Assembly (NCBI GenBank): GCA_964365185.1
Contig: CAYIOP010000004.1
Span: forward strand, 1 to 56,456
From: an uncultured Candidatus Saccharibacteria bacterium
GTDB lineage: Bacteria > Patescibacteriota > Minisyncoccia > UBA6257 > 2-01-FULL-56-20
Reading direction: 5' to 3'
DNA: 56,456 bases
How positions within the stretch are numbered: the stretch's first letter is position 1; each line of letters begins with the position of its first letter. Positions 1-43,023 of the stretch are shown piece by piece. Under the pieces are notes generated by a model, which made no database searches, was not told where the DNA came from, and saw only the letters and a list, made by a program, of their open reading frames with translations. The translations under genes and the position numbers were made by a program.

Positions 1-1
1 A

Positions 2-3000
2 ATTAAATTAATTGATGGCCGCACTGGCCGTCCTTTTGATCGTCCCGTAACTGTCGGTTATATCTACATGATGAAGTTAAACCATCTAGTTGAAGACAAG
101 GTTCACGTCCGATCGATTGGTCCTTATTCGCTTATCACCCAGCAACCCCTAGGCGGTAAAGCTCAATTTGGAGGTCAGCGTTTTGGGGAGATGGAGGTCT
201 GGGCTCTTGAGGGTTATGGCGCCCGCCACACCCTTCAGGAAATGTTGACTATAAAATCCGATGACATCCTCGGCCGTTCATCGGCTTATGAATCAATAAT
301 CCGGGGAGAAAAAATCAAAAAACCTAACATTCCGGCTTCTTTTAATGTTTTACTTGCGGAACTCAAATCGCTAGGTTTTAATATTGAGCCCCTCTATGAT
401 TCCAATGAAAAAAACGATGCGTTTAAGGCTCTTAAAATTAATGTGGCCTCGCCTCAAGATATTTTAAGATGGTCTCACGGAGAAGTAGTTAAGCCCGAGA
501 CCATTAATTACCGCACTCAGCGCCCTGAAAAGGATGGTCTTTTTTCTGAGAGAATTTTTGGTCCCACTAAGGATTATGAGTGTTACTGCGGTAAATATCG
601 GCGTATTCGTTATAAAAATGTTGTTTGCGATAAATGCGGCGTCGAAGTCACCCGTTCCATTGTTCGCCGCGAACGCATGGGGCATATTGAGTTATCCACT
701 CCGGTTTGTCATATTTGGTTCTTAAAAAGCGTTCCGTCGAGGTTAAGTCTAATTTTAAATACCTCCTCTTCTAAACTAGAACGAGTTATTTATTATTCAG
801 CTTATATTGTCACCGACGTTGACGAGACCGCTCGAAAACAGGCCCTTGAAGAATTAGACAGGGAACTTAAAAGCAAACTTAAAATTGTCGGCGCCAAAGA
901 TCCTAAAGTTAAAAAAGATTTAGTTGGAGCCGCCAGTCAAACTCGAGAATTTTTAAATAATCTTAGGGCTGGAGATATTTTAAGTGAATTGGAATATTTC
1001 AATATTTCCCGCCGCTTCGGCAATGTTTTTCGAGCTGGCAGCGGCGCCGAAGCTGTTCGCTCTATCTTAGAAAAAATTGATCTTAGAAAAGACGTTCAAA
1101 AAATAGAAAAAGAAATTAATTCTCCCGGGAAAAAACAGGTTGATTTAAGGCAGTACCGCCGCCTTAAAATGCTCAAGGCCATGATAAAAAACAACACTCG
1201 GCCGGAGTGGATGATTATCACCGTCTTGCCTGTGCTGCCTCCCGACCTAAGGCCAATGGTGGCTTTAGATGGCGGCCGTTACGCCACTTCAGATTTAAAT
1301 GATCTTTATCGCCGAGTCATCAACCGCAATAATCGTTTGAAAAAACTGCTCGAGATTAAAGCGCCAGATGTTATCGTCAAAAACGAGAAACGCATGCTCC
1401 AAGAAGCGGTAGATGCGCTCATTGATAACTCCGCTCGCTTTGGCACTCAACAACTTTCCACTCAACGCCGTCCGCTTCGATCTCTCGCGGATATGTTAAA
1501 AGGTAAACAAGGTCGGTTTAGGCAAAATCTTTTGGGCAAAAGAGTTGATTATTCTGGCCGTTCGGTTATTGTCGTGGGTCCAAAATTAAAAATTAATGAA
1601 TGTGGTTTGCCTAAAAAAATGGCTCTTGAATTATTCCGTCCTTTTGTTATTAGTGAAATTATCAAACGGGGCTTAGCTAATAATATCCGGAGCGCCAACC
1701 GGATTCTTGAGCAAACCAGCGACGAAATTTGGGCTATTCTTGAAGAAATTATTAAAGATCGCTATGTCTTATTAAATCGCGCTCCCACTCTCCATCGTTT
1801 AAGCGTTCAGGCCTTTAAACCCATTCTCGTTGAGGGCTTAGCTATTCAGATCCCTCCTTTAATTTGTATGGCTTTTAACGCCGATTTCGACGGCGACCAG
1901 ATGGCGGTTCATTTACCTCTCTCCGAAGAGGCCCAATTGGAGTCCAAAACCATCATGTCGGCTAACCGCAATCTTTTAAAACCCGCTACCGGAGACCTGA
2001 TTACTATTCCTACTCAAGATGTGGTTTTGGGCATTTATTACCTCACTCAACTTGATCAGAGTTTTTCTGGACCGGCTAAACATTTTATTGACGCCGAAGA
2101 TGCCCTCTTGGCTTATAATTACAGTATTATTAATTTAAGGCAGCCGATTAAAATAGGATTCTCTGATGCAATTCTCGAAACAACTGTGGGGCGATTAATC
2201 TTCAATCAGATTTTTCAAGGGGAAATCGCTTTTATCAATAAAACTTTAAATAAGAAAGAACTTTCCAAGATTCTAGATGAATACGTCGAGAATTACGGTT
2301 TTGAAAAAACTGGCGATATTTTGGACAAAATTAAACTGTTGGGTTTTGAAAGGTCAACCCGGTCAGGGATTACTTGGGCTACTTCTGATTTAATTATTCC
2401 CAAAGAGAAGCCCCAAATCTTAAAAGAAGCTGAAGTTAAAGTTGACGAAGTTTACAGCCAGTTTTTTAGCGGTCTTTTAACTAATGAAGAGCGGCGCATT
2501 CGAATTATTAATGCTTGGGAAGAAGCCAAGAAAAAGATTTCAGAATTGGTTCTGAAAGTCCTGCCACCCAATAATTCTATTTATCAAATTATCGATTCAG
2601 GGTCGCGTGGTTCTTGGATCCAGCCCATTCAAATGATGGGCATGAAAGGTTTAGTTCAAAATTCTCAAGGCGCAACCATTGAATTGCCCATCAAATCTTC
2701 CCTCAAAGAAGGGCTTTCGGTTCTCGAATATTTCATCTCAACTCATGGTGCCAGAAAAGGCACAACTGACACTGCGCTTAAAACCGCTCAAGCCGGTTAT
2801 CTTACTCGACGGCTAGTTGATGTTTCTCAAGATATCTTCACTAAAGAAGAAGATTGTCGCACCACCGAAGGTATTGAAATCGTTCGGGTTGATGGCCAGA
2901 AAATCAATCAATCTTTTACCAGCCGGATTTTTTCCAGAACTTCTCTCGAGGAAATTAAGATTGGCCGCAAAATTATCATTAAGCCCAATGAAATCATCAA

Positions 3001-4063
3001 CAAAGTTAACGCCGAATTAATTGATAAATCAGAAATTGCCTCAGTTAGAGTTCGTTCGCCGATTACCTGCAAAACTCTATACGGCATTTGTAATCGATGT
3101 TACGGTTTTAATTTAGGAGATAATCGGCCCATTAAAATCGGGGAAGCGGTCGGCGTTGTCGCCGCTCAATCCATCGGCGAGCCCGGCACGCAGCTTACCA
3201 TGCGTACTTTCCACTCTGGCGGTGTTGCCGGAGTCGACATCACTCATGGTCTGCCCAGAATCGAAGAAATTTTTGAAGCTCGTCCGCCTAAAGGTAAGGC
3301 TATTTTGGCTTATGAGGACGGAGTTGTTCAAAACATCGAAGAAAGGGGAACCCTCCGCGTTCTTTCTTTATCTACCGACAAAAAGAAAGCCACCTCTTCC
3401 AAAAAAACTTCCAAAGCCGCCAAATTTGCCGAATACTCTATTTCGAGTTCATCTTCATTTTTGGTTAAGATTGGCGATAGCGTTAAGAAGGGAGATCAAA
3501 TTTCAAACGGCAACCTCGACCTAAAAGAACTGCTGGAATTTAGAGGTAAGCACGAGGTTGAGAAATATATCGTGAGCGAAGTTCAGAAAATTTATTTCTC
3601 CGAAGGCGCTTCTATTAACAATAAACATATCGAAGTTATCGTAAAACAAATGTTCTCTCGGGTTAAAATTAAAGACGCGGGCGACGCTCCCGATCTGGTT
3701 ATCGGTGAAATTATTGAAAAACCAAAATTTCTGGAAATTAATCGCGAACTAAAAAAACAAAATCACGAACCCGCTAAGGCCGAGCAACTTTTAATGGGCA
3801 TTACTCAAGTGGCTCTCTCTACCGAAAGTTTCTTGTCGTCCGCTTCCTTCCAAGACACCGCTCGAGTTTTGGTTAGGTCGGCCATTGAGTCCCGTATCGA
3901 TCCTCTTCGGGGCCTCAAGGAAAACGTTATTATTGGTCGCCTTATTCCTACCGCCCACTCAAAAGAAGTTGAGGCATTAGCCAATCGAGTAGCGGCAGAA
4001 TCACCAGAAGAAGAAAAAACCCTAGAGGTCGCCACGCTTGACGAATCCGCCAAAGTCAGCTAA
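2..4063 (+). CDS. rpoC: RNA polymerase beta subunit C-terminal end (5' partial, open to the window edge) fused in frame to a full-length beta-prime subunit
   Basis: Frame 2 is open from nt 2. The first ~110 aa are the RpoB C-terminus ([75 protein letters not shown]). It runs without a stop into the RpoC N-terminus ([24 protein letters not shown], Zn motif [30 protein letters not shown]). Confidence 0.92.
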
Positions 4064-7938: not shown

Positions 7939-8166
7939 TGCGGGTGAAAAAAATCGGGGAAGAAATCTATCTTCCCCGCCTATCAGAGTAGCTGAATTTG
8001 TTGTAATCCCTCGATAAGCTCGGGATCTCGTTACACTCGGCTTTTCTGATAGGACTTTTAAACAAGTCCCTCTTGCACTCTTGAAAATTTAATTAAGCAG
8101 TTCACCTAAAACCAAAAACCCGCGACAAGTTTTTATAAACAGGTCGCAAACAGAAAGGAACAAGTC

Positions 8167-8790
8167 ATGTCTGACAGGTTCACATTTAATAGTGCTGGTC
8201 AGGTTCACGAGCTCGAAATGGCGATGGATCGAGCCGGCGACTGGAGCGCCGCATTAGTGAAGCGGTTGTGCGAAGAGGACCGCTTGACTAAGGTCCGGGA
8301 CTATCTCCTCGGTCTAGCCGAAATCAGATATCCCGAACACATCATCGACTGCGACGCCGTCCCATTTGTTCCGAAAAATTGGGAAGTGGAGCATCACCAG
8401 AAGGGCGGGCAATTTAAGTTCGATCCCACCAAGGTGTTGTTCTACTTATCTGAATCGCAGAGTAGCGGTGGGGTTATAAAGGGACATGAACTTCGCAAGG
8501 AGATGGCTGATAAGCCGGTTCTAAACGCGAATGTCCTTGATTACCTCATTGTTAATCCACACCTCATTCCCGAGGAATGGAAGTTAGACGAGCAGGGCCG
8601 CACTCGTTACATCTTTTTCTGGGGTACAATTTACCGCGACTCGGACGGCGACCTGTATGTGCGCTATCTGTCTTTCGAGGACAGTGGCTGGGACTGGGGC
8701 TACCGCTGGCTTGACGGCGGTTGGCGCGGCGCGAGCCCCGCGGCTCTTCTCGCAAGTATCCCCGCCGGAGCGCAAGCGCAGGCGGGTTGA
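8167..8790 (+). CDS. DGR target protein (hypothetical, 207 aa) with a C-terminal variable region
   Basis: Clearly more G+C-rich than its neighbours. The C-terminus (SDGDLYVRYLSFEDSGWDWGYRWLDGGWRGASPAALLAS) is the variable copy of the downstream template repeat. Confidence 0.85.
   Translation: MSDRFTFNSAGQVHELEMAMDRAGDWSAALVKRLCEEDRLTKVRDYLLGLAEIRYPEHIIDCDAVPFVPKNWEVEHHQKGGQFKFDPTKVLFYLSESQSSGGVIKGHELRKEMADKPVLNANVLDYLIVNPHLIPEEWKLDEQGRTRYIFFWGTIYRDSDGDLYVRYLSFEDSGWDWGYRWLDGGWRGASPAALLASIPAGAQAQAG
8631..8757 (+). repeat. DGR variable repeat (VR)
   Basis: 127-nt match to 9148-9274 (offset 517). It differs only where the other copy has adenine. Confidence 0.85.
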
Positions 8791-8810
8791 ACCTTAACTC
8801 TTTGACACTT

Positions 8811-8838
8811 CCGCTTGGGAATTAAAATTCCCAAGCGG
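8811..8838. other. perfect 12-bp hairpin downstream of the VR
   Basis: CCGCTTGGGAAT-TAAA-ATTCCCAAGCGG. A GC-rich imperfect palindrome also lies at 8761-8786, directly after the VR. Confidence 0.6.
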
Positions 8839-8882
8839 AGAGAACTTTATAGCTTTTGTTTAAAATTTTGATCCCTATATTT

Positions 8883-8915
8883 ATCCGCGCTCAAATTCTT
8901 GGCGCGGATTTTTTT
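8883..8915 (+). terminator. intrinsic terminator of the target gene
   Basis: ATCCGCGC..GCGCGGAT stem followed by TTTTTTT. Confidence 0.6.
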
Positions 8916-8923
8916 GATATAAT
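8915..8923 (+). promoter_or_regulatory. extended -10 promoter element (TGATATAAT) upstream of the TR
   Basis: TGnTATAAT match immediately after the terminator, about 225 nt upstream of the TR. Confidence 0.4.
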
Positions 8924-9147
8924 AAAAACGGCAGTAGGTGAATATGCGGGCGGCTACGGTTTCCCGCTACCGAACCCGGGTTCTTGTCTCGAGAGCATCT
9001 CCGGTTACGGCTTGAGATGGAATGGGACAGGAATATCCGAAAAAAGTGAAGATACTTGGTGTAGGATGCTAGGGCATTTTAGATGCCGAATAAGATACAG
9101 CCCAGAGAATATTCAATGGGCAGTGGCGCGGATGGCATTTTACACAG

Positions 9148-9274
9148 AAACCGCGACTCGAACGGCAACCTGTATGTGCGCTATCTGTATTTCAAGGACA
9201 GTGGCTGGAACTGGAGCTACAACTGGCTTAACAACGATTGGCGCGGCGCGAGCCCCGCGGCTCTTCTCGCAAAT
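9148..9274 (+). repeat. DGR template repeat (TR), non-coding
   Basis: Adenine-rich copy with six in-frame-equivalent AAC triplets. All VR differences map to its adenines. The ORFs predicted across it (8856-9302, 9083-9364) are not credible. Confidence 0.85.
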
Positions 9275-9284
9275 CACTTCACTT

Positions 9285-9320
9285 CTCCCTCAAATAATCT
9301 GAGGGAGTTTTATTTTTTTT
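9285..9320 (+). terminator. intrinsic terminator immediately 3' of the TR
   Basis: CTCCCTCA-AATAATC-TGAGGGAG stem-loop followed by TTTTATTTTTTTT. Confidence 0.65.
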
Positions 9321-9360
9321 CACATCAAACTTGCTTCAATCAAGCTCAACCCCAAAGTGA

Positions 9361-9396
9361 TTAACATTATATCCGCTTAAGCGGATATAATGTTAA
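9361..9396. repeat. 36-nt perfect palindrome overlapping the miaA stop codon
   Basis: TTAACATTATATCCGCTT|AAGCGGATATAATGTTAA. Confidence 0.7.
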
Positions 9397-10373
9397 TCGT
9401 CTAGTAATTTTCTTACCAATTTCTCCACTTCCGATTTTCGCGAAATCCACACGATATTTTTATCTCGCCTAAACCATGTCATCTGCCGCTTGGCGTAGCG
9501 CCAAATCTCAACTACCGACTTTTCAATCATCTCCTCGCGGCTGATCTTCTCCTCTAAAAATAAATTCACAATCGGATACTCCATCCCAATCTCCTTTAGT
9601 CGTTTCTCTGACACTCCTGATTTTTTTAAACCCTGAACCTCAATTACCAATCCGCGCCTCAACCACTCCATCAATCGCTTTCGAATAATGTTTTTCAATT
9701 TCCGACCATCAATTTTTAATCCAATCTTCAATGCCTGATATTTATCTATTCTAATATTCTCAAGAACACTAGAATAAGACGATTTACCGGTTTGAATCGC
9801 AATTTCAATCGCTCGTACCAGCCGGCGCCGGTTGTGTTGGTCAATATTTTCCGCCCGTCGCGGGTCTAATTTTTTTAGCCCTCTGAATAACTCTTCGGTT
9901 GTTTTTCTCTCTAACTTCCTGCGAAGCAGGGGATTGGGCTTTACTTCCGGAAAAGTCCGCTCGCCCAAAAGCGTGTCAATATAAAGTCCGGTTCCCCCGC
10001 AGATAATTGGCAACCGGCCGCGCCGCCAAATATCTTTTATCGCTTTCTCGGCCATTCGCTTATACACCGCCACGCTAAAAACTTTCTTCACGCTCGCCAC
10101 GTCAATCAAATGATGCCGTATCCCTTTGTAGTAGTATTTATTTACCTGACACCTGACACCTGGCACCTGGCACCTTTCGCAGGGTATTTTCCCCGTCCCA
10201 ATATTAAGCTCCCGATACACCTGCCTTGAATCCGCCGAGATAACCTCGCCGTTGAACTTCTTGGCCATCTGAATCGCGAGCTCTGATTTACCGCTCCCAG
10301 TCGGCCCCAAAATCACCAGTATTTTAGGCCTTACTTTCCGGCTATTTCCCGCTATTGACAATTTATTTATCAT
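9393..10373 (-). CDS. miaA: tRNA dimethylallyltransferase
   Basis: P-loop ILGPTGSGKSELA, ISADSRQVYRELNIGTGK, RHHLIDV. Confidence 0.9.
   Translation of the reverse strand: MINKLSIAGNSRKVRPKILVILGPTGSGKSELAIQMAKKFNGEVISADSRQVYRELNIGTGKIPCERCQVPGVRCQVNKYYYKGIRHHLIDVASVKKVFSVAVYKRMAEKAIKDIWRRGRLPIICGGTGLYIDTLLGERTFPEVKPNPLLRRKLERKTTEELFRGLKKLDPRRAENIDQHNRRRLVRAIEIAIQTGKSSYSSVLENIRIDKYQALKIGLKIDGRKLKNIIRKRLMEWLRRGLVIEVQGLKKSGVSEKRLKEIGMEYPIVNLFLEEKISREEMIEKSVVEIWRYAKRQMTWFRRDKNIVWISRKSEVEKLVRKLLDD
9746..9777. repeat. palindromic element copy inside miaA (CTATTCTAATATTCT-CA-AGAACACTAGAATAA)
   Basis: About 33 of 36 nt identical to the intergenic perfect palindrome at 31287-31318. Here it encodes SVLENIRID. 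Confidence 0.65.
10144..10175. repeat. heptanucleotide tandem repeat (ACCTGRC x4.5) inside miaA
   Basis: ACCTGAC ACCTGAC ACCTGGC ACCTGGC ACCT. It encodes CQVPGVRCQV within a lineage-specific insert. Confidence 0.85.
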
Positions 10374-11114: not shown

Positions 11115-12395
11115 CTACAGCATTCTCTCCATTATTTTCTTCTTAATTTCTTCAACTAAATCTTTAATTTTATAATCCTCGTTTTTATTCTGACCCAACT
11201 TACGCGCGCTTACTTCTCCAACTTTCTCTTCTTTTTCTCCCACCACTAAAATATAAGGAATCTTCTGCATCTCCGCCTCGCGGATTCTTTTATTTAGTGT
11301 TTCGTTGGCATCCGACATTTCCACTCTCACTCCCGCAACTTTAAGTTCATCAAAAATTTTCCGGCCATAATCCGCAATCTTCTCGCTTATCGGCAAAACT
11401 GTTGCCTGAACCGGAGCGAGCCACAAAGGCAAAGCGCCGTTAAAATGTTCGAGCAATATTCCGATGAATCGCTCAAACGACCCGTAAACCGCCCGATGAA
11501 TCACCATTGGTTTTTGTTTTTTGCCGTCTTCGTCAATGTAAGCCAAACCAAACTGCTCGGGCAGCATCACAAGGTCGAGTTGAATCGTGGCCAACTGCCA
11601 GCTCCGCTCTAGCGAGTCCTTAATTTCAATATCAATCTTCGGGCCATAAAACGCGCCGTCTTTTTCTTTAAGTTCGTATTTAACTTTGTTTTCTGTAAGC
11701 GCGGACTTTAATGATTCCTCGGCCTTATCCCAGACCTTTTTCTCGCCCATGGCCTTATCCGGCATGGTGGAGAGATAAAACTTCGGCGAAAAACCAAAGA
11801 TGGCATAAACCTTAGTCACTAATTTTAAAAGTGAGGAAACTTCCGTGTGAATTTGGTCTGGTCGCAAATAGATATGCGCGTCATCCATTGTAAATTGCCT
11901 CAACCGAAAAAGTCCGCCCACCACTCCTGAAAGTTCATTTCGGTGCAGTCGCCCAATCTCTGCTAATCGTAAGGGCAAATCCTTATAACTTCTGGTTCTG
12001 ACGTTAAAAACATAAGTTGACTCCGGACAGTTCATTGGCTTAATTGCGTAAGTTTCTTTTTCTTGGTCAAAATAAAACATATTTTCTCGGTAATATTTCC
12101 AGTGTCCGGATTTTTCAAAAACTGCTTTTTTGACCATAATCGGCGTGGAAATTTCGTTATAGCCCATCAGGTCCAATTCCTCTCGAATTAACTTTTCAAG
12201 TTCCCTAAAAATAATCATTCCCTTACCGTGCCAAAAAACCGTGCCTGGTGCCACTTCGTGAAACGAAAAAAGATTTAATCGCTCGCCGAGTTCCCGGTGA
12301 CCTGCGGTGAGCTTGCCTGCACTGAGTTTGTCGAATGTGTCGAATCCGTCGGCCTGATTTGATCCTCCATTTTTTTCTTCCTTAGGTTTAGACAT
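11115..12395 (-). CDS. thrS: threonyl-tRNA synthetase, catalytic plus anticodon-binding domains only (426 aa)
   Basis: HRELGERLNLFSF, class II motifs (FRLRQFTMDDAHIY, GSFERFIGILLEH). Only about 30 aa precede the catalytic core. Confidence 0.9.
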   Translation of the reverse strand: MSKPKEEKNGGSNQADGFDTFDKLSAGKLTAGHRELGERLNLFSFHEVAPGTVFWHGKGMIIFRELEKLIREELDLMGYNEISTPIMVKKAVFEKSGHWKYYRENMFYFDQEKETYAIKPMNCPESTYVFNVRTRSYKDLPLRLAEIGRLHRNELSGVVGGLFRLRQFTMDDAHIYLRPDQIHTEVSSLLKLVTKVYAIFGFSPKFYLSTMPDKAMGEKKVWDKAEESLKSALTENKVKYELKEKDGAFYGPKIDIEIKDSLERSWQLATIQLDLVMLPEQFGLAYIDEDGKKQKPMVIHRAVYGSFERFIGILLEHFNGALPLWLAPVQATVLPISEKIADYGRKIFDELKVAGVRVEMSDANETLNKRIREAEMQKIPYILVVGEKEEKVGEVSARKLGQNKNEDYKIKDLVEEIKKKIMERML

Positions 12396-12447
12396 TGCTT
12401 TAAATTATACTTGATTTTTTTTGGTTTTTAAAGCTATAATTGCAGTA

Positions 12448-12693
12448 ATGTTAACTCAATTTATAATTAAAAAACTAAAAACCGCCCGGTATAAAATTTT
12501 AAAAGATGGTGTTTATTTTGGCGAAATTCCCGGCCTTCGCGGTGTTTGGGCTAGCGCCAAAAATCTCGAAGATTGCCGGCGTGAATTAGCCGAGGTTTTA
12601 GAGGACTGGCTTTTGCTTAAAATCCGCAGCCACGCCAAAATTCCTGGTTTTAAAATAAAAGTTGATCGGCGCGAGCTCGTGAGAAATGCCTAA
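12448..12693 (+). CDS. hicB: HicB-family antitoxin
   Basis: YFGEIPGLRGVWASAKNLEDCRRELAEVLEDWLL. It overlaps the downstream HicA gene by 8 nt. I prefer the ATG at 12448 over the TTG at 12421. Confidence 0.7.
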   Translation: MLTQFIIKKLKTARYKILKDGVYFGEIPGLRGVWASAKNLEDCRRELAEVLEDWLLLKIRSHAKIPGFKIKVDRRELVRNA

Positions 12694-12901
12694 AAATGTT
12701 TCGTGGCGTAAGTTAGTCCAGAGATTTAGGCAACTTGGTTTTGATGGCCCCTATTCCGGAGGGCGCCACCTGTTTATGTCTAAAGGAGAATTCAAAGTTC
12801 GCATTCCCAATCCTCACAAAGGCGATATTTCGAAACATTTACTTTCGGAAATTTTGCGTCAATCTGGAATATCAACTAAGGACTGGGACAATGTAAAATA
12901 A
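12686..12901 (+). CDS. hicA: HicA-family mRNA interferase toxin
   Basis: WRKLVQRFRQLGFDGPYSGGRHLFMSKGEFKVRIPNPHKGDISKHLLSEILRQSGIS matches the HicA/YcfA pattern. Confidence 0.8.
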   Translation: MPKNVSWRKLVQRFRQLGFDGPYSGGRHLFMSKGEFKVRIPNPHKGDISKHLLSEILRQSGISTKDWDNVK

Positions 12902-40600: not shown

Positions 40601-41575
40601 ATGAATCAAAATTCCTCAATAGGAATTGATTACGGTGCTTTACTAAAGAAATACCCTTGGGTAGTTGAGCGTGATCAGGATTGTATTTTAAGTCCAGATA
40701 GCGATGGCCTTCTGTGCGGTTTATTTATGTCTCATTATTTAGGGTGGAAGATTCGCGGATTTTATGACGGCAAAGTTCTTGTTGTTGAAGAAGATATTAA
40801 TCATAAAAAATGTATTTTCTTAGACATGGAAATATTTCGTTCAGGTATTCGTAGCGTTGGACAGCATATGGTTATGTACGACAAGGCAGATTTGCCACTA
40901 AATTGGAATAATTTTGAAAACTCTATAGCGGCGAATAATTTAAGAAATTATGATTTCAAGAATGATTTCAAATCCAAATATCCGTTTGGAACAATTCATA
41001 TTTTACTTTCTATTCTAGGTCAAAATCGCAGCATTTCAATTGCAAAAAAAGCAGTAAGTCCGCTGTTATATACTGATGGGACTTTCAAGAATCAATTTAA
41101 TTACCCAGAAAATTGTTTGGGTTGGTTGGATTTCTTGGGCGTAGATAGTGCAAACAATCCCCTCCAAAAAGTATTTTTAGATCGGCATTATTCAACATAT
41201 GAATTGATGATTGAGTTGAAGGATTTATTTTCAAAAATCAACGTTATCGGTGGAGGAAAGCGTGGTGGCGACAAGATTAAGATTTCCGATTCTCGGGGGA
41301 ATATAACCAATATCGATTCTCACACGCATCAATTAAAAACAACTACAAAAACGCAGGCCGAAACATTTTTGAGAATGCTTGCGGATAAAACAGGATGGGC
41401 ATTTACACCTACTCATTGGTCTTGGGGTCCTTATCGGATCGCTACCTTTAAAAAGGGTAGCGTAAAGCCAGGAAAAGCACGCTATAATTCACTCCTTGCT
41501 CAAAACCCCATATCTTTAGCGATTATTAGCAGGAACAGTATTGAATTTACAATTGACAGCAAAAAAGTTTTTTAA
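40601..41575 (+). CDS. hypothetical 324-aa protein, positional candidate for the nuclease/effector partner of the adjacent methyltransferase
   Basis: I recognise no family. It is convergent with the methylase gene and their stop codons overlap (41572-41575). Confidence 0.55.
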   Translation: MNQNSSIGIDYGALLKKYPWVVERDQDCILSPDSDGLLCGLFMSHYLGWKIRGFYDGKVLVVEEDINHKKCIFLDMEIFRSGIRSVGQHMVMYDKADLPLNWNNFENSIAANNLRNYDFKNDFKSKYPFGTIHILLSILGQNRSISIAKKAVSPLLYTDGTFKNQFNYPENCLGWLDFLGVDSANNPLQKVFLDRHYSTYELMIELKDLFSKINVIGGGKRGGDKIKISDSRGNITNIDSHTHQLKTTTKTQAETFLRMLADKTGWAFTPTHWSWGPYRIATFKKGSVKPGKARYNSLLAQNPISLAIISRNSIEFTIDSKKVF

Positions 41576-43023
41576 AACATTCTACTTGATGTTTGAGCGC
41601 ACTCTTCTTTTATCCGTTTTTCGGCAATAGCGCAGTAGTCAGGCGCGATGTCAATTCCAATATATTTGTAGCCTAAATTTTTTGCCGCAACGGCAGTTGT
41701 GCCACTTCCAATAAAAGGATCTAATACAACTCCGTTTTTTGGAGTAAAACAACTAATAAAATCATATGGAAGTTGATTTGGAAAAGTGGCCGGGTGCTGA
41801 TGTTTTAGGCGGCTTCCGTCGCCAGCTGTTAGGTATTCCCAAATAGTTCCGCGACATTTCATTAGGTTAATTTTAATAGAGCGTGTATCTATACGAATTC
41901 CATTTGTAAGACGGGTGCCTCCCCCAGTCATTGTTTTGCCGCCGTGTTTTGAAGGAATTTTTAGATGTTCTTTGTTGAAATGTTGTGGTCTCTCACCTTT
42001 TAAAAATATCGGAACATACTCATGATCAACACGGAATCTTTTATTCCACCACGCGCCCTCTGCTCCATATTTACGATAAATCACGGTTTCGAAAAGCTTG
42101 AAGCCAAAACTATCACACCAATCAACTATTGTCCTAAAAGAGGTTAGCGATTTTCCAAAGTTTTTTGTTTGATCTTGAATTACCATAGCCACCACTCCGC
42201 CGTTTTTTAGAACCCGATATATTTCTTTGCCAGATGCGTGTAGATCAAGGGAAAATCCTTTGTAATCACGAACCGCATCGTACGGAGGAGAGGTAATCAC
42301 TATGTCTATTGAATTTGAAGGAAACTTTTTCATTACTTCCACTGCGTCACCGCATATAATTTTATTCAGTGGAAGATCATTGTATTTCTCTTGTTTTTTA
42401 TATTCTGGTAATTCGATTGTAGAATTTCCTTCCTCCCGAATCACATCAATCACTATTCCCTGTATCGCAACATCCCGACCATTTCGGAATATGAGTGGCT
42501 CCATATTTTTATTGGCTGGTTGTAGGCGTATATATCCTCGCTCTTTATAAAATTTCTTAAGCGTCGCTCCGTGATTATCTATCAAAGCAACTACTTTTTG
42601 GCCATTCTCAGCGGTCTCTTGTTGACGCACTAAAACAATATCGCCATCGTTGATATTTTCATCAACCATACTATTTCCAACTACTCGGAGAGCATAAATT
42701 TCAGATGAGGCGGGGACTTTACTTTTTGGTACCGCAATCGTTTCTCTATCTTGAATTGCTTCAATAGGTTGTCCGGCGGAAATAGTACCTAAAAGTGGAA
42801 TCTTCATCATTGTCTCGTTGCCTAAGGCCTTGATAGATCGCGGTTTGTTTTCTCCTTTCGATAAATATCCCAAGTCACGGAGTTTGGAGACATGGAAATG
42901 GGCAGTTGAAACAGAGGCAAGTTTGAATTTCTTGCGTATCTCGTGAAGCGTGGGGGAGTACCCTTTTCGCCCTTGATAATCAGTTATAAAATCCAGGACT
43001 TGTTTTTGCTTTTTTGTTACCAT
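41572..43023 (-). CDS. LexA-type repressor (wHTH + S24 self-cleaving peptidase) fused to a beta-class N4/N6 DNA methyltransferase
   Basis: N-terminal part: KQKQVLDFI..GYSPTLHEI..HVSKLRDLGYL, cleavage site LLGTISAGQP, Ser in VVGNSMVD, Lys in ATLKKF. C-terminal part: motif IV IVITSPPYD then motif I VLDPFIGSGTTAVAA. Confidence 0.85.
   Translation of the reverse strand: MVTKKQKQVLDFITDYQGRKGYSPTLHEIRKKFKLASVSTAHFHVSKLRDLGYLSKGENKPRSIKALGNETMMKIPLLGTISAGQPIEAIQDRETIAVPKSKVPASSEIYALRVVGNSMVDENINDGDIVLVRQQETAENGQKVVALIDNHGATLKKFYKERGYIRLQPANKNMEPLIFRNGRDVAIQGIVIDVIREEGNSTIELPEYKKQEKYNDLPLNKIICGDAVEVMKKFPSNSIDIVITSPPYDAVRDYKGFSLDLHASGKEIYRVLKNGGVVAMVIQDQTKNFGKSLTSFRTIVDWCDSFGFKLFETVIYRKYGAEGAWWNKRFRVDHEYVPIFLKGERPQHFNKEHLKIPSKHGGKTMTGGGTRLTNGIRIDTRSIKINLMKCRGTIWEYLTAGDGSRLKHQHPATFPNQLPYDFISCFTPKNGVVLDPFIGSGTTAVAAKNLGYKYIGIDIAPDYCAIAEKRIKEECAQTSSRMF

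Follow-up and report, generated by a model that had tools for sequence, protein, structure and literature searches.

A target and template cassette of a diversity-generating retroelement without a reverse transcriptase in a Patescibacteria genome, possibly served in trans

In the BPP-1 diversity-generating retroelement (DGR), which has the order mtd-avd-TR-brt, avd and brt flank the template copy (TR) on the same strand. Most of the structured RNA of this element trails the TR (PMC8867640), while pairing between sequences upstream and downstream of the TR generates a cPRT-Stop duplex that, together with an Avd-binding stem-loop, is also predicted in CPR DGRs (Handa et al., 2024, bioRxiv 10.1101/2023.10.23.563531). 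Experiments have shown that avd, TR and brt also function when provided in trans, and in Treponema denticola and others the RT-Avd reaches remote targets, on DNA distant from the gene that encodes it (Wu et al., 2018, PMC5758913). CPR DGRs, which correspond to DGR clade 2 and have targets with no recognisable domain (Roux et al., 2021, PMC8144416), belong for 90% of them to a 'B3' subtype of avd/TR/RT architecture (Wu et al., 2018, PMC5758913). Since both of these surveys start from the reverse transcriptase (RT), TR-bearing cassettes that lack one would escape them.

The window that was analysed, i.e. the whole stretch of 56,456 nucleotides, comes from a groundwater bacterium (an uncultured Candidatus Saccharibacteria) of Hainich well H43 (0.1 um fraction; ENA ERZ1292629 and ERZ1292626), with ~4-6x coverage and ~40% G+C. 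It contains such a cassette, in the locus order gatB-cassette-miaA, with the following features.

8100..8166, plus strand: 5'UTR of the target gene, at the left border of the cassette; homology to the related locus L087 (GCA_030697795.1) and other subfamily members begins at ~8100
8167..8790, plus strand: DGR target gene encoding 207 aa, from a large Patescibacteria family of ~190-200 aa proteins
8633..8757, plus strand: variable copy (VR), codons 156-197 of CDS 8167-8790, with 13 mismatches to the TR, all adenine-templated
8737..8755, plus strand: putative IMH-equivalent, a GC-rich segment at the VR 3' end (CCCGCGGCTCTTCTCGCAA) that recurs unchanged at TR 9254-9272
8761..8787, plus strand: GC-rich palindromic insertion of 27 nt directly after the VR (-16.8 kcal/mol, z = -2.7)
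8809..8840, plus strand: spacer hairpin, a perfect 14-bp stem lacking a U-tract (-23.3 kcal/mol, z = -8.3)
8883..8915, plus strand: predicted target-gene terminator, a GC-rich hairpin followed by T7 (z = -5.3)
8913..8923, plus strand: predicted extended -10 promoter (TTTGATATAAT), which fits a TGnTAnAAT box
8930..9149, plus strand: predicted structured 5' leader of the DGR RNA, ~220 nt, 55 pairs
9046..9052, plus strand: leader strand (GTGAAGA) of a predicted TR-bracketing helix, pairing with 9276-9282
9150..9274, plus strand: TR, non-coding and intergenic, with 28 adenines
9276..9282, plus strand: post-TR strand (ACTTCAC) of the same helix, partner of the leader strand
9285..9320, plus strand: predicted stem-loop and U-tract at the 3' end of the RNA gene (z = -3.9), where the cassette also has its right-hand border

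The core of this cassette is a direct repeat of 125 nt (VR 8633-8757 versus TR 9150-9274, offset 517), on which a scripted ungapped comparison and a repeat finder agree. Its copies differ at 13 positions (TR 9161, 9167, 9189, 9194, 9209, 9215, 9221, 9222, 9230, 9233, 9234, 9237 and 9273), 13/13 of which are TR adenines, a pattern with a probability of P = 2.4e-10 by chance (hypergeometric, 28 adenines in the 125-nt TR). This is the same list of positions that a preliminary description of the locus had drawn up by eye, and differences at a C, G or T of the TR, named there as the observation that would speak against a DGR, were looked for over the 125 nt and none was found. The repeat extent given at that time (8631-8757/9148-9274) was correct in its core, but 9148 and 9149 lie outside the computed repeat and non-adenine mismatches appear farther upstream. 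Similarly, the substitutions described as mostly A to G with a few A to C or T are indeed 11 A>G and 2 A>C, but there is no A>T among the computed 13. This strong A>G bias was dropped as a distinguishing mark because it is shared by canonical loci of the family, in which A>G is dominant as well (278 G, 62 C and 55 T). Each of the 13 mismatches affects the first or second position of a codon in CDS 8167-8790, which places them in residues 160, 162, 169, 171, 176, 178, 180, 183-185 and 197 of the protein (arithmetic from the mismatch coordinates), and the six diversified AAC codons of the TR read D, D, D, R, D and G in the VR, exactly as had been reported.

The window pair is a genuine DGR VR/TR pair, as was originally proposed, since homologous target and RNA genes adjoin bAvd and RVT_1 in ~35 relatives. 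A segmental duplication, a chance repeat or an assembly artefact dropping the RT would explain that a 125-nt direct repeat exists and nothing more, and we consider these scenarios negligible in view of (i) the restriction of all mismatches to adenines of one copy, (ii) the homology of target and RNA genes to those of RT-linked DGRs and (iii) the presence of the TR-to-miaA junction in three independent assemblies from two samples (the window, L001 and L002), which are identical over 1.3 kb save one SNP at 9109.

The GC-rich segment at 8737-8755, a conserved 3' feature of every aligned TR, occurs in two copies only within the 56-kb window, where no further VR or TR copy was found. It is this segment of ~19 nt that is characteristic of the family, and not the identical 3' tract of ~35 nt that had initially been likened to an IMH, the length of which is atypical. 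Within this tract, the window TR lost three AAC codons at 9242-9252, which are present in 43/43 other aligned TRs, and it carries the VR version at this place, the only one among 44 TRs to do so. An exact search of 185,579 GTDB genomes with the 35-nt VR/TR 3' end gave no match. Downstream of the VR, the hairpins at 8761-8786, 8809-8840 and 8883-8908 (plus T7) are predicted to fold as had been described. The GC-rich end shared by VR and TR, together with these downstream hairpins, matches the DGR pattern for an IMH, which makes them candidates for a role in homing. The 27-nt insertion is missing from aligned relatives, whose targets end with ...AS* or ...ASI*; it takes the place of the family stop codon and the protein gains PAGAQAQAG. 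The hairpin with a T-run before the RNA promoter has an equivalent in all aligned relatives.

No RT or Avd is encoded in the window, as previously stated on the basis of its open reading frames. Pfam scans of 30 ORFs detected neither RVT_1 nor bAvd, tblastn with RT and Avd proteins of relatives against all frames of the 56 kb gave no match (E > 0.04), and no Y/FxDD motif was found within a plausible ORF. The only trace of avd in the window is the terminator segment, which doubles as the last codons of avd in relatives. The cassette is followed after 72 nt by miaA (minus strand, 9393-10373), with no convergent avd and no RT there.

How does this cassette compare to described systems? In ~35 relatives, the order is target, TR RNA gene, avd (on the minus strand) and RT (on the plus strand), the convergent avd overlapping the TR terminator and the RT coming next, a layout that probably corresponds to the 'B3' subtype of Wu et al. 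(2018, PMC5758913). The window shares with these CPR/Patescibacteria DGRs a homologous target family with a C-terminal VR, a homologous RNA gene and TR, the absence of a recognisable domain in the target and the dominance of A>G, but it has neither avd nor RT and its cassette stops with the U-tract that closes the RNA gene. With the BPP-1 DGR it has in common adenine-specific transfer, a GC-rich identical 3' end, a post-VR hairpin, TR-flanking segments that are predicted to pair together and a stem-loop just downstream of the TR. The differences are that the enzyme genes that flank the TR in BPP-1 are missing, and that the bulk of RNA structure trailing the TR in BPP-1 contrasts with ~220 nt of covarying structure on the 5' side, and only ~45 nt after the TR, in the window family. 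As for remote-target DGRs, only their extra VR targets are remote while the TR stays by the RT, whereas in the window the TR RNA gene is itself apart from an RT. Finally, degenerate DGR cassettes, which are frequent in the family, have likewise lost enzyme genes by deletion, but the window differs from them by its complete RNA gene, the absence of non-adenine divergence and a boundary common to four unrelated loci.

The TR is part of a self-contained transcription unit of ~390 nt (about 8930-9320, predicted from sequence) with its own predicted promoter and terminator. The extended -10 element that had been pointed out fits a TGnTAnAAT box that is near-invariant in 56 aligned loci, but a -35/-10 consensus scan found no promoter at the TR RNA gene; at the other end, a terminator scan also detects the stem-loop 9285-9307 with its T-run. 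A TR gene with its own promoter and terminator, as suggested early on, is thus supported by the conserved box and by this match. However, the notion that a stand-alone TR gene is a peculiarity of an RT-less locus has to be abandoned, since every member of this CPR family has its TR in a self-contained RNA gene, which makes it the norm.

The leader preceding the TR is predicted to comprise a pair of hairpins whose loops carry the motif RYTACGGYTT, as well as an A-run and a 3' domain, the closing helix of which ends just before the TR. A 'type II' version of the leader is seen in L050, L087, L090 and L173. RNAalifold on 56 sequences yields 55 leader pairs, 41 of which show compensatory double changes, and the window leader retains 55/55 of them, with an nhmmer score (205) that is mid-range among canonical loci. 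No Rfam family was found for the TR RNA, at gathering or permissive thresholds. Structural intactness of the leader was dropped as evidence of function because dead loci retain 50-54/55 pairs. The perfect identity at non-adenine positions, which is confirmed and had been taken to speak against old decay, is likewise no proof of activity, since the leaders of clearly dead loci are also intact.

The TR is in addition bracketed by a predicted helix, newly found here and backed by covariation. Its leader strand precedes the TR by ~100 nt and falls beyond the 40 nt that Handa et al. (2024) analysed. In the window, six Watson-Crick pairs are intact, from G9046-C9282 through G9051-C9277. Across 44 RNAs, 86.6% of cells are paired, versus 38-65% with a slid partner, and compensatory changes are seen in 6/7 pairs, with 0/500 shuffles reaching the observed value. 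Judged by position, the stem-loop at 9285-9320 would correspond to the one reported to bind Avd just past the TR (Handa et al., 2024, bioRxiv 10.1101/2023.10.23.563531); in canonical relatives its 3' arm and U-tract are the reverse complement of the last codons of avd (KQNSP).

The window is not an isolated case. Five cassettes have a complete RNA gene and no RT or Avd, namely the window, L050 (JBBTRR01, H52-bin035_1), L087, L173 and L177. They are followed by different, unrelated housekeeping genes (miaA, alaS, an M48 peptidase gene, rpoB and, presumably, leuS, as read from its N-terminal sequence, respectively) and show no synteny among themselves. All five stop 0-12 nt past the U-tract with no avd remnant, and homology of the window to all relatives stops at the U-tract of the TR RNA gene. 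Because these five boundaries cluster in this way, uniformly random deletion is very unlikely, with a probability <1e-3 even for 2-3 independent events (our own arithmetic); left deletion ends inside the ~1.35 kb of avd and RT are found in only about 2-5 other loci. Over the five cassettes, 90/90 VR/TR mismatches are at TR adenines, and while the five TRs differ from one another by 12-28 non-adenine differences pairwise, each VR follows its own TR in every pair. In the neighbour-joining tree, a single clade of 12 targets, without any canonical RT-linked member, holds four of the five, whereas 31/34 TR-bearing targets in the rest of the tree are canonical.

The reading that we lean towards, with a probability of roughly 45%, is that the window is a discrete RT-less module of target and template, written by an RT-Avd encoded elsewhere. 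The recurrence of a module with a boundary at the RNA 3' end suggests that RT-Avd is encoded outside the locus, and the shared boundary of the five cassettes, their 90 adenine-only mismatches and the clustering of their targets lean the same way. At least when homing last took place, an RT-Avd supplied in trans, from a second DGR or from an RT-Avd unit located elsewhere in the genome, would have bound the structured DGR RNA, made a TR cDNA with adenine errors and replaced the VR with it (mutagenic retrohoming).

We prefer this module over a frozen relic, which nevertheless is a realistic possibility. In that case, a canonical DGR would have lost avd and RT by deletion, no compatible RT would exist in the genome, the VR would have been fixed since and the RNA gene would look intact only because the loss is recent. 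Decay by deletion is the commonest fate in the family: ~22 loci are reduced to a truncated leader, a truncated TR or fragments of avd/RT, and in ~60 nothing is left. Examples are truncated leaders (L015, L017, L019 and the first target of L043), TRs cut inside (L009, L090 and L122), avd without RT (L038 and L162) and a leader directly followed by an RT fragment (L092). In the window's own clade, 8/12 targets are already without an intact RNA gene (five truncated, three gone), and since L092, which belongs to it, still has its RT fragment, a cis RT once existed there. Signs of wear in the TRs point in the same direction, i.e. the three AAC codons missing from the window TR and an in-frame TGA at an invariant Trp codon in the L177 TR, as do the odd 27-nt insertion directly after the window VR and the retention of leader structure by dead loci. 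Moreover, the second target of L043 has lost its RNA gene 7 kb from a complete DGR, which indicates that an RT residing in the same genome does not, as a rule, keep additional RNA genes intact. On the other hand, a relic requires 3-5 independent deletions with left ends within ~12 nt past the U-tract out of ~1350 nt, and it leaves unaccounted for the absence of any non-adenine VR/TR difference in five cassettes and the grouping of intact RT-less cassettes within a single target clade, not dispersed among canonical relatives. Against the module stands the observation that the window leader is closest to that of a canonical DGR (L005, 82%), which implies repeated origins of RT-lessness or repeated swaps of the RNA gene. 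Both options originally left open, an RT elsewhere or an RT recently lost, are still alive.

Two further observations were set aside. The VRs in the three assemblies (window, L001 and L002) are identical, which might lean against a module served in trans together with common decay and worn TRs, but this is weak evidence because the VR of a canonical target, P0047, is equally invariant, on 16 contigs, and invariance was dropped as a sign of inactivity. The RT-less RNAs differ from the canonical consensus at 8-18 conserved columns versus a median of 3, a deviation that was dropped as a decider between the hypotheses since it is confounded by divergent ancestry.

Base composition raises another scenario, in which a 1.2-kb unit of target and RNA gene, acquired horizontally or copied without the enzyme genes, was dead on arrival in a host that had at no time possessed a compatible RT, the donor being the source of the adenine-only pattern. 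The cassette (~0.50 G+C) is indeed richer than its flanks (0.41), by ~10 points, as had been noticed, and the largest excesses are found in low-GC hosts of RT-less cassettes (0.53 vs 0.37 for L050 and 0.52 vs 0.41 for L087). The five unrelated contexts of the five cassettes and the mosaic histories of target genes and RNA genes would also fit. However, the excess is family-wide (mean +7.6 points, 59/65 loci), which makes it weak evidence for the recent horizontal acquisition that was first suggested. In addition, the exact stop at the RNA 3' end would be unexplained unless the copy was made from a transcript, and repeated recent arrivals would be needed for VR and TR to be the same at all non-adenine sites. 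We regard this scenario as quite improbable. Inspection of the cassette ends by eye for target-site duplications revealed only a weak TTCAC...AAAC resemblance.

If the window is a module served in trans, one may go further and ask whether RT-less units of target and TR RNA form a real, propagating class of DGR satellites in Patescibacteria, which we consider unlikely at present. Such satellites would be transcript-shaped, with a right end at the U-tract and variable, possibly 5'-truncated left ends. They could originate as retro-copies of a transcript that reads through from target to TR, or through boundary-specific recombination, and insert at new chromosomal sites, a single remote RT-Avd diversifying many templates in a network that RT-anchored surveys would not see.

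The implications differ accordingly. If these cassettes are served in trans, (i) DGR target counts in DGR-rich CPR bacteria would be underestimated, (ii) one RT-Avd could drive several independent template/target pairs and (iii) the unit of DGR mobility would be an RNA-plus-target module and not the whole element. Should they be relics, this family would provide a decay series of unusual completeness, showing how hypervariable proteins become fixed once the mutator is lost. Either way, the 5' structured leader, with its covariation in 56 loci, and the TR-bracketing helix are testable elements for RNA recognition by CPR-type RT-Avd.

As for the target itself, its family has 1210 homologues at E <= 1e-3 and is essentially cellular, since only three matches are on viral contigs; identity to targets of RT-linked loci and other family members is 46-72%. 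An RT from a relative used as query returned >8000 homologue matches. The protein has no Pfam domain, no sequence-profile match in PDB and no Foldseek match in BFVD. Its AlphaFold2 model (mean pLDDT 89) gives weak matches in PDB by Foldseek (E 0.2-1, TM at most 0.47), many of which are C-type-lectin domains, and the variable residues are predicted to lie in or between C-terminal beta strands (149-157, 163-171, 174-181 and 192-195).

The closest target is that of L182, where an Avd-like gene 1.2 kb downstream was rejected as a DGR partner because it encodes a 23S-rRNA-IVS-type four-helix protein; it sits between what we take to be the two halves of a transketolase. In the window, the 5'UTR of the target gene contains a conserved putative hairpin (GCGAC 8122-8126/GTCGC 8143-8147) immediately ahead of the ribosome-binding site, which L087, L089, L090 and L091 retain through compensatory changes.

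A scripted comparison of the variable repeat (VR) in the target gene with the downstream template repeat (TR), at an offset of 517, gives 13 differences over 125 nt, all on TR adenines (11 A>G and 2 A>C; P = 2.4e-10, given the 28 adenines in the TR) and all at codon position 1 or 2 of the target CDS. These are the mismatch positions listed in a preliminary description, except that its two edge positions, 9148 and 9149, are not part of the computed repeat, and a repeat search of the window returns the identical pair. The hairpins and the stem-loop with U-tract reported around the repeats also fold as described there.

Features of the cassette (target gene plus TR RNA gene) and its border in the window
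8167-8790, target gene, encoding 207 aa
8633-8757, VR
8761-8786, hairpin
8761-8787, 27-nt GC-rich palindromic insertion
8809-8840, hairpin
8883-8908, hairpin followed by T7
9046-9052, GTGAAGA in the RNA leader (ATGAAGA in the family)
9150-9274, TR
9276-9282, post-TR ACTTCAC (conserved as TCTTCAT in the family)
9285-9307, stem-loop followed by the U-tract
9359-9398, perfect palindrome

A search with the target found 1210 homologues, about 190-200 aa long and nearly all from Patescibacteria (CPR) MAGs. On two long contigs (L003 and L005), the homologue is followed by a TR ~330 nt downstream, then by bAvd (minus strand) and the reverse transcriptase (RT) domain RVT_1 (plus strand), a layout that we take to be the 'B3' subtype of avd/TR/RT architecture, described in general terms for 90% of CPR diversity-generating retroelements, or DGRs (Wu et al., 2018, PMC5758913). 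The window locus therefore belongs by homology to a known DGR family, and its repeats, with their adenine-only mismatches, are a genuine CPR VR/TR pair. CPR DGRs form clade 2, with targets lacking recognisable domains (Roux et al., 2021, PMC8144416), and the window target found nothing in BFVD, a PDB sequence profile or Pfam. In an AlphaFold2 model of the protein (pLDDT 89), the variable residues derived from the mismatch coordinates (160, 162, 169, 171, 176, 178, 180, 183-185 and 197) lie on and between C-terminal beta strands, and the alternate residues 176, 178 and 180 on one modelled strand would fit a binding surface. Foldseek gave no significant match to this model; many of the weak top ones (E 0.2-1, TM at most 0.47) are C-type-lectin domains. 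Immediately before the ribosome-binding site of the target gene, a 5'UTR hairpin (8122-8147, GCGAC...GTCGC) is kept with compensatory changes in four relatives (L087, L089, L090 and L091) and may be a regulatory element. Right after the target stop, 2-4 copies of a CTTTGAC / CTTGGA / CTTAGAC motif occur across the family (window 8790-8810; L050 10580-10640; most relatives).

The window repeats have two peculiarities. Three AAC codons of TGG-AAC-GGC-AAC-AAC-CCC are missing from this TR alone among 44 aligned TRs, its 9238-9274 part carrying instead the VR version, CGC GGC GCG AGC, which suggests that the 3' part of the VR was copied back into the TR by gene conversion or self-homing. This VR-like 3' part accounts for the unusually long identical VR/TR tail, and the loss leaves fewer variable codons. 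In addition, the palindromic insertion directly after the VR takes the position of the stop codon used by the family, lengthens the protein by PAGAQAQAG and is absent from every relative compared.

Alignments running from the stop codon of the target past the TR covered 26 loci, and later 56 and 44. All aligned members have, in the same order, (i) a terminator hairpin of the target gene, (ii) a TGnTAnAAT box, (iii) a conserved leader of ~220 nt, (iv) the TR, (v) a short conserved tail and (vi) a stem-loop with a U-tract. The TR thus forms a transcription unit of its own family-wide, so that the stand-alone RNA gene first proposed for the window is real but is a trait shared with its relatives. 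Of the 55 pairs that RNAalifold predicts from 56 leaders, 41 show compensatory double changes, and all 55 are present in the window, whose RNA gene is complete, with its structure intact; it matches no Rfam family. The leader heptamer is complementary to the post-TR TCTTCAT, forming a helix that encloses the TR: over 44 RNAs, 86.6% of cells are paired, versus 38-65% with the partner slid, 6/7 pairs show compensatory changes and 0/500 shuffles reach the observed values.

In the Bordetella phage DGR RNA, sequence upstream of the TR pairs with sequence downstream of it and an Avd-binding stem-loop lies just downstream of the TR, both features being predicted in CPR DGRs too from an analysis that reached just 40 nt upstream of the TR (Handa et al., 2024, bioRxiv 10.1101/2023.10.23.563531). 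The CPR bracketing helix and post-TR stem-loop resemble these elements. However, the bulk of the CPR structure precedes the TR, whereas that of the phage structure trails it (PMC8867640).

The note of an absent RT and Avd holds for all 56 kb. Pfam scans of 30 window ORFs found neither protein, only housekeeping genes (an RNA polymerase beta/beta-prime ORF, rpsF, ssb, rplK, tmk, gatB, miaA, a class II tRNA synthetase, hicAB, serS, alr, lepA, dnaG, a sigma-70 factor, alaS and argS), and tblastn of the relatives' RT and Avd proteins against all frames gave no match (best E 0.04). An assembly artefact is ruled out, since two more Hainich groundwater assemblies (L001 and L002) have the same TR-to-miaA junction. 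Over 1.3 kb the only difference among the three is one leader SNP at 9109 (L001 6642), which is A in the window and L002 and G, the family consensus, in L001. The invariance of the VR among assemblies says little, because a canonical target protein (P0047) is also identical on 16 contigs. Between the U-tract and miaA, over the miaA stop codon, lies the single-copy palindrome (40 nt, 20+20 without loop, -27 kcal/mol, z = -8.8), which could be the miaA terminator or a scar at the cassette junction.

Elsewhere in the window, a plus-strand frame open at the left edge (1-4063) runs through Rpb2_6, Rpb2_7 and Rpb1_1 to Rpb1_5 with no stop between and looks like an rpoB-rpoC fusion. A 483-aa ORF (41572-43023, minus strand) unusually fuses a LexA DNA-binding domain, an S24 peptidase and an N6/N4 DNA methyltransferase. 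A HicB-like/HicA toxin-antitoxin pair (12421-12901) sits between the class II tRNA synthetase gene (11115-12395) and serS, and a similar pair lies downstream of the RT-less cassette in L087.

A complete RNA gene without avd or RT occurs at four distinct loci in addition to the window, and the five show no synteny.

RT-less cassettes: locus, source, following gene
Window, Hainich H43, then miaA (minus strand)
L050, H52-bin035_1, then alaS
L087, GCA_030697795.1, then M48 peptidase
L173 (same as L093), JGI and ENA metagenomes, then rpoB
L177, ENA groundwater metagenomes, then a gene read as leuS from its N-terminus

The unit recurs as a discrete module ending at the RNA 3' end. In 5/5 cassettes homology to relatives ends 0-12 nt past the U-tract, and nothing after it resembles the GGW-coding region of avd. 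In canonical loci (L003, L005 and others) avd converges on the post-TR stem-loop and its reading frame enters the TR terminator, so that the conserved GGGGGAGTTTTGTTT is both the RNA 3' arm with U-tract and the reverse complement of the last avd codons, KQNSP. The interrupting G of the U-tract, retained in L173 and nearly every canonical locus, is gone (TTTTATTTT or T7) in the other four RT-less cassettes, in three of which its loss would put a stop in the KQNSP frame.

Across the five, 90/90 VR/TR mismatches fall on TR adenines. Any two of their TRs show 12-28 differences at non-adenine sites, and both VRs track their own TR in 10/10 pairwise comparisons, so homing went on in each lineage after TR divergence. 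The VR would have been written by adenine-mutagenic retrohoming dependent on RT and Avd. Uniformly placed deletions would share the U-tract boundary with a probability of <1e-3 (a rough binomial), even with two or three independent events, and the locus itself thus probably did not encode the enzyme; how independent the five are is uncertain, since target and RNA-gene modules recombine. Our tentative reading, with a probability of about 0.45, is that RT-Avd was supplied in trans, at least at the last homing event. Action in trans has precedent in plasmid-borne avd, TR and brt, which are functional, and in DGRs that act on distant targets (PMC5758913), although in these cases the TR remains with the RT. 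As speculation, the sharp 3' boundary with variable left ends could reflect a transcript-shaped copy.

A recent loss of avd and RT in cis, leaving the VR frozen, is a real contender that we hold at rather less than even odds. The module boundary is unlike the outcome of random deletion, and in only about 2-5 other loci does a left deletion end fall within the ~1.35 kb of avd and RT. Decay by deletion is nevertheless very common in the family, as follows from the remnant and traceless loci in a census of 80 loci from GTDB genomes, 80 from metagenomes and individual look-ups, classified by tblastn for RT and Avd, a VR/TR scan and an nhmmer leader profile (classes are script-assigned and some, e.g. 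L110 and L065, borderline).

Census classes, in distinct target loci
Canonical (TR with RT, or TR with avd where the contig stops), about 35
TR and avd with no RT downstream, 3 (L154 has an inverted RT upstream)
Remnants only (truncated leader or TR, or avd/RT fragments), about 22
RNA gene gone without trace, about 60
Truncated by the end of a contig, about 28

Remnants include truncated leaders (L015, L017 and L019), TRs cut after about 25, 15 and 85 nt (L009, L090 and L122) and, in L092, a leader that runs straight into RT codons 272-326. A neighbour-joining tree of the target outside the VR puts 4/5 RT-less cassettes in one 12-member clade (4 intact RT-less, 5 with remnants, 3 with nothing, none canonical; L179, script-labelled target-only, stands in for L177), while canonical loci make up 31/34 TR-bearing targets in the rest of the tree. 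The heavy loss of the RNA gene in this clade counts against a trans-supplied module, as does the L092 fragment, which proves that a cis RT once existed in the clade. Intact structure is no sign of function, since dead loci keep 50-54/55 leader pairs. Also to be counted against such a module are the missing AAC codons and the 27-nt insertion of the window, and a TGA in the L177 TR (2014-2133) that falls, in the frame of the target, on an invariant Trp codon (TGG in the VR) and whose faithful copying would bring a stop into the target. The same holds for the window leader being closest to those of canonical L005 (82%) and L118 (81%), then L177 (76%), apart from a separate 'type II' group (L050, L087, L090 and L173). 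Target and RNA-gene histories are reticulate, a further point on that side: the window and L087 have a target lineage and left boundary in common but not an RNA gene, whereas L087 and L050 share 90% identity in the RNA gene and only 48% in the targets.

That the cassette arrived as a fragment, by horizontal transfer or by copying, and was at no time active in this genome strikes us as improbable. Horizontal acquisition had been proposed from base composition, and the excess is real (G+C about 0.50 versus 0.41 in the flanks), but the non-VR part of the target exceeds flank G+C in 59/65 loci (mean +7.6 points), which makes it weak evidence for recent transfer. Target non-VR and host G+C correlate (r = 0.60), and the low-GC hosts of RT-less cassettes show the greatest excess.

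Two further observations concern insertions. A palindromic element, GCCTGCCTGC(C/T)GGCAGGCAGG, sits in the first hairpin loop of the L177 leader (about 1790-1812) and recurs in spacer/remnant regions of L181 (about 930-960) and L182 (about 745-765); it may be a small mobile repeat. In L122, the cut TR meets, from about 4618, sequence reading like a large serine recombinase, which suggests a mobile element or rearrangement inside this DGR RNA gene.
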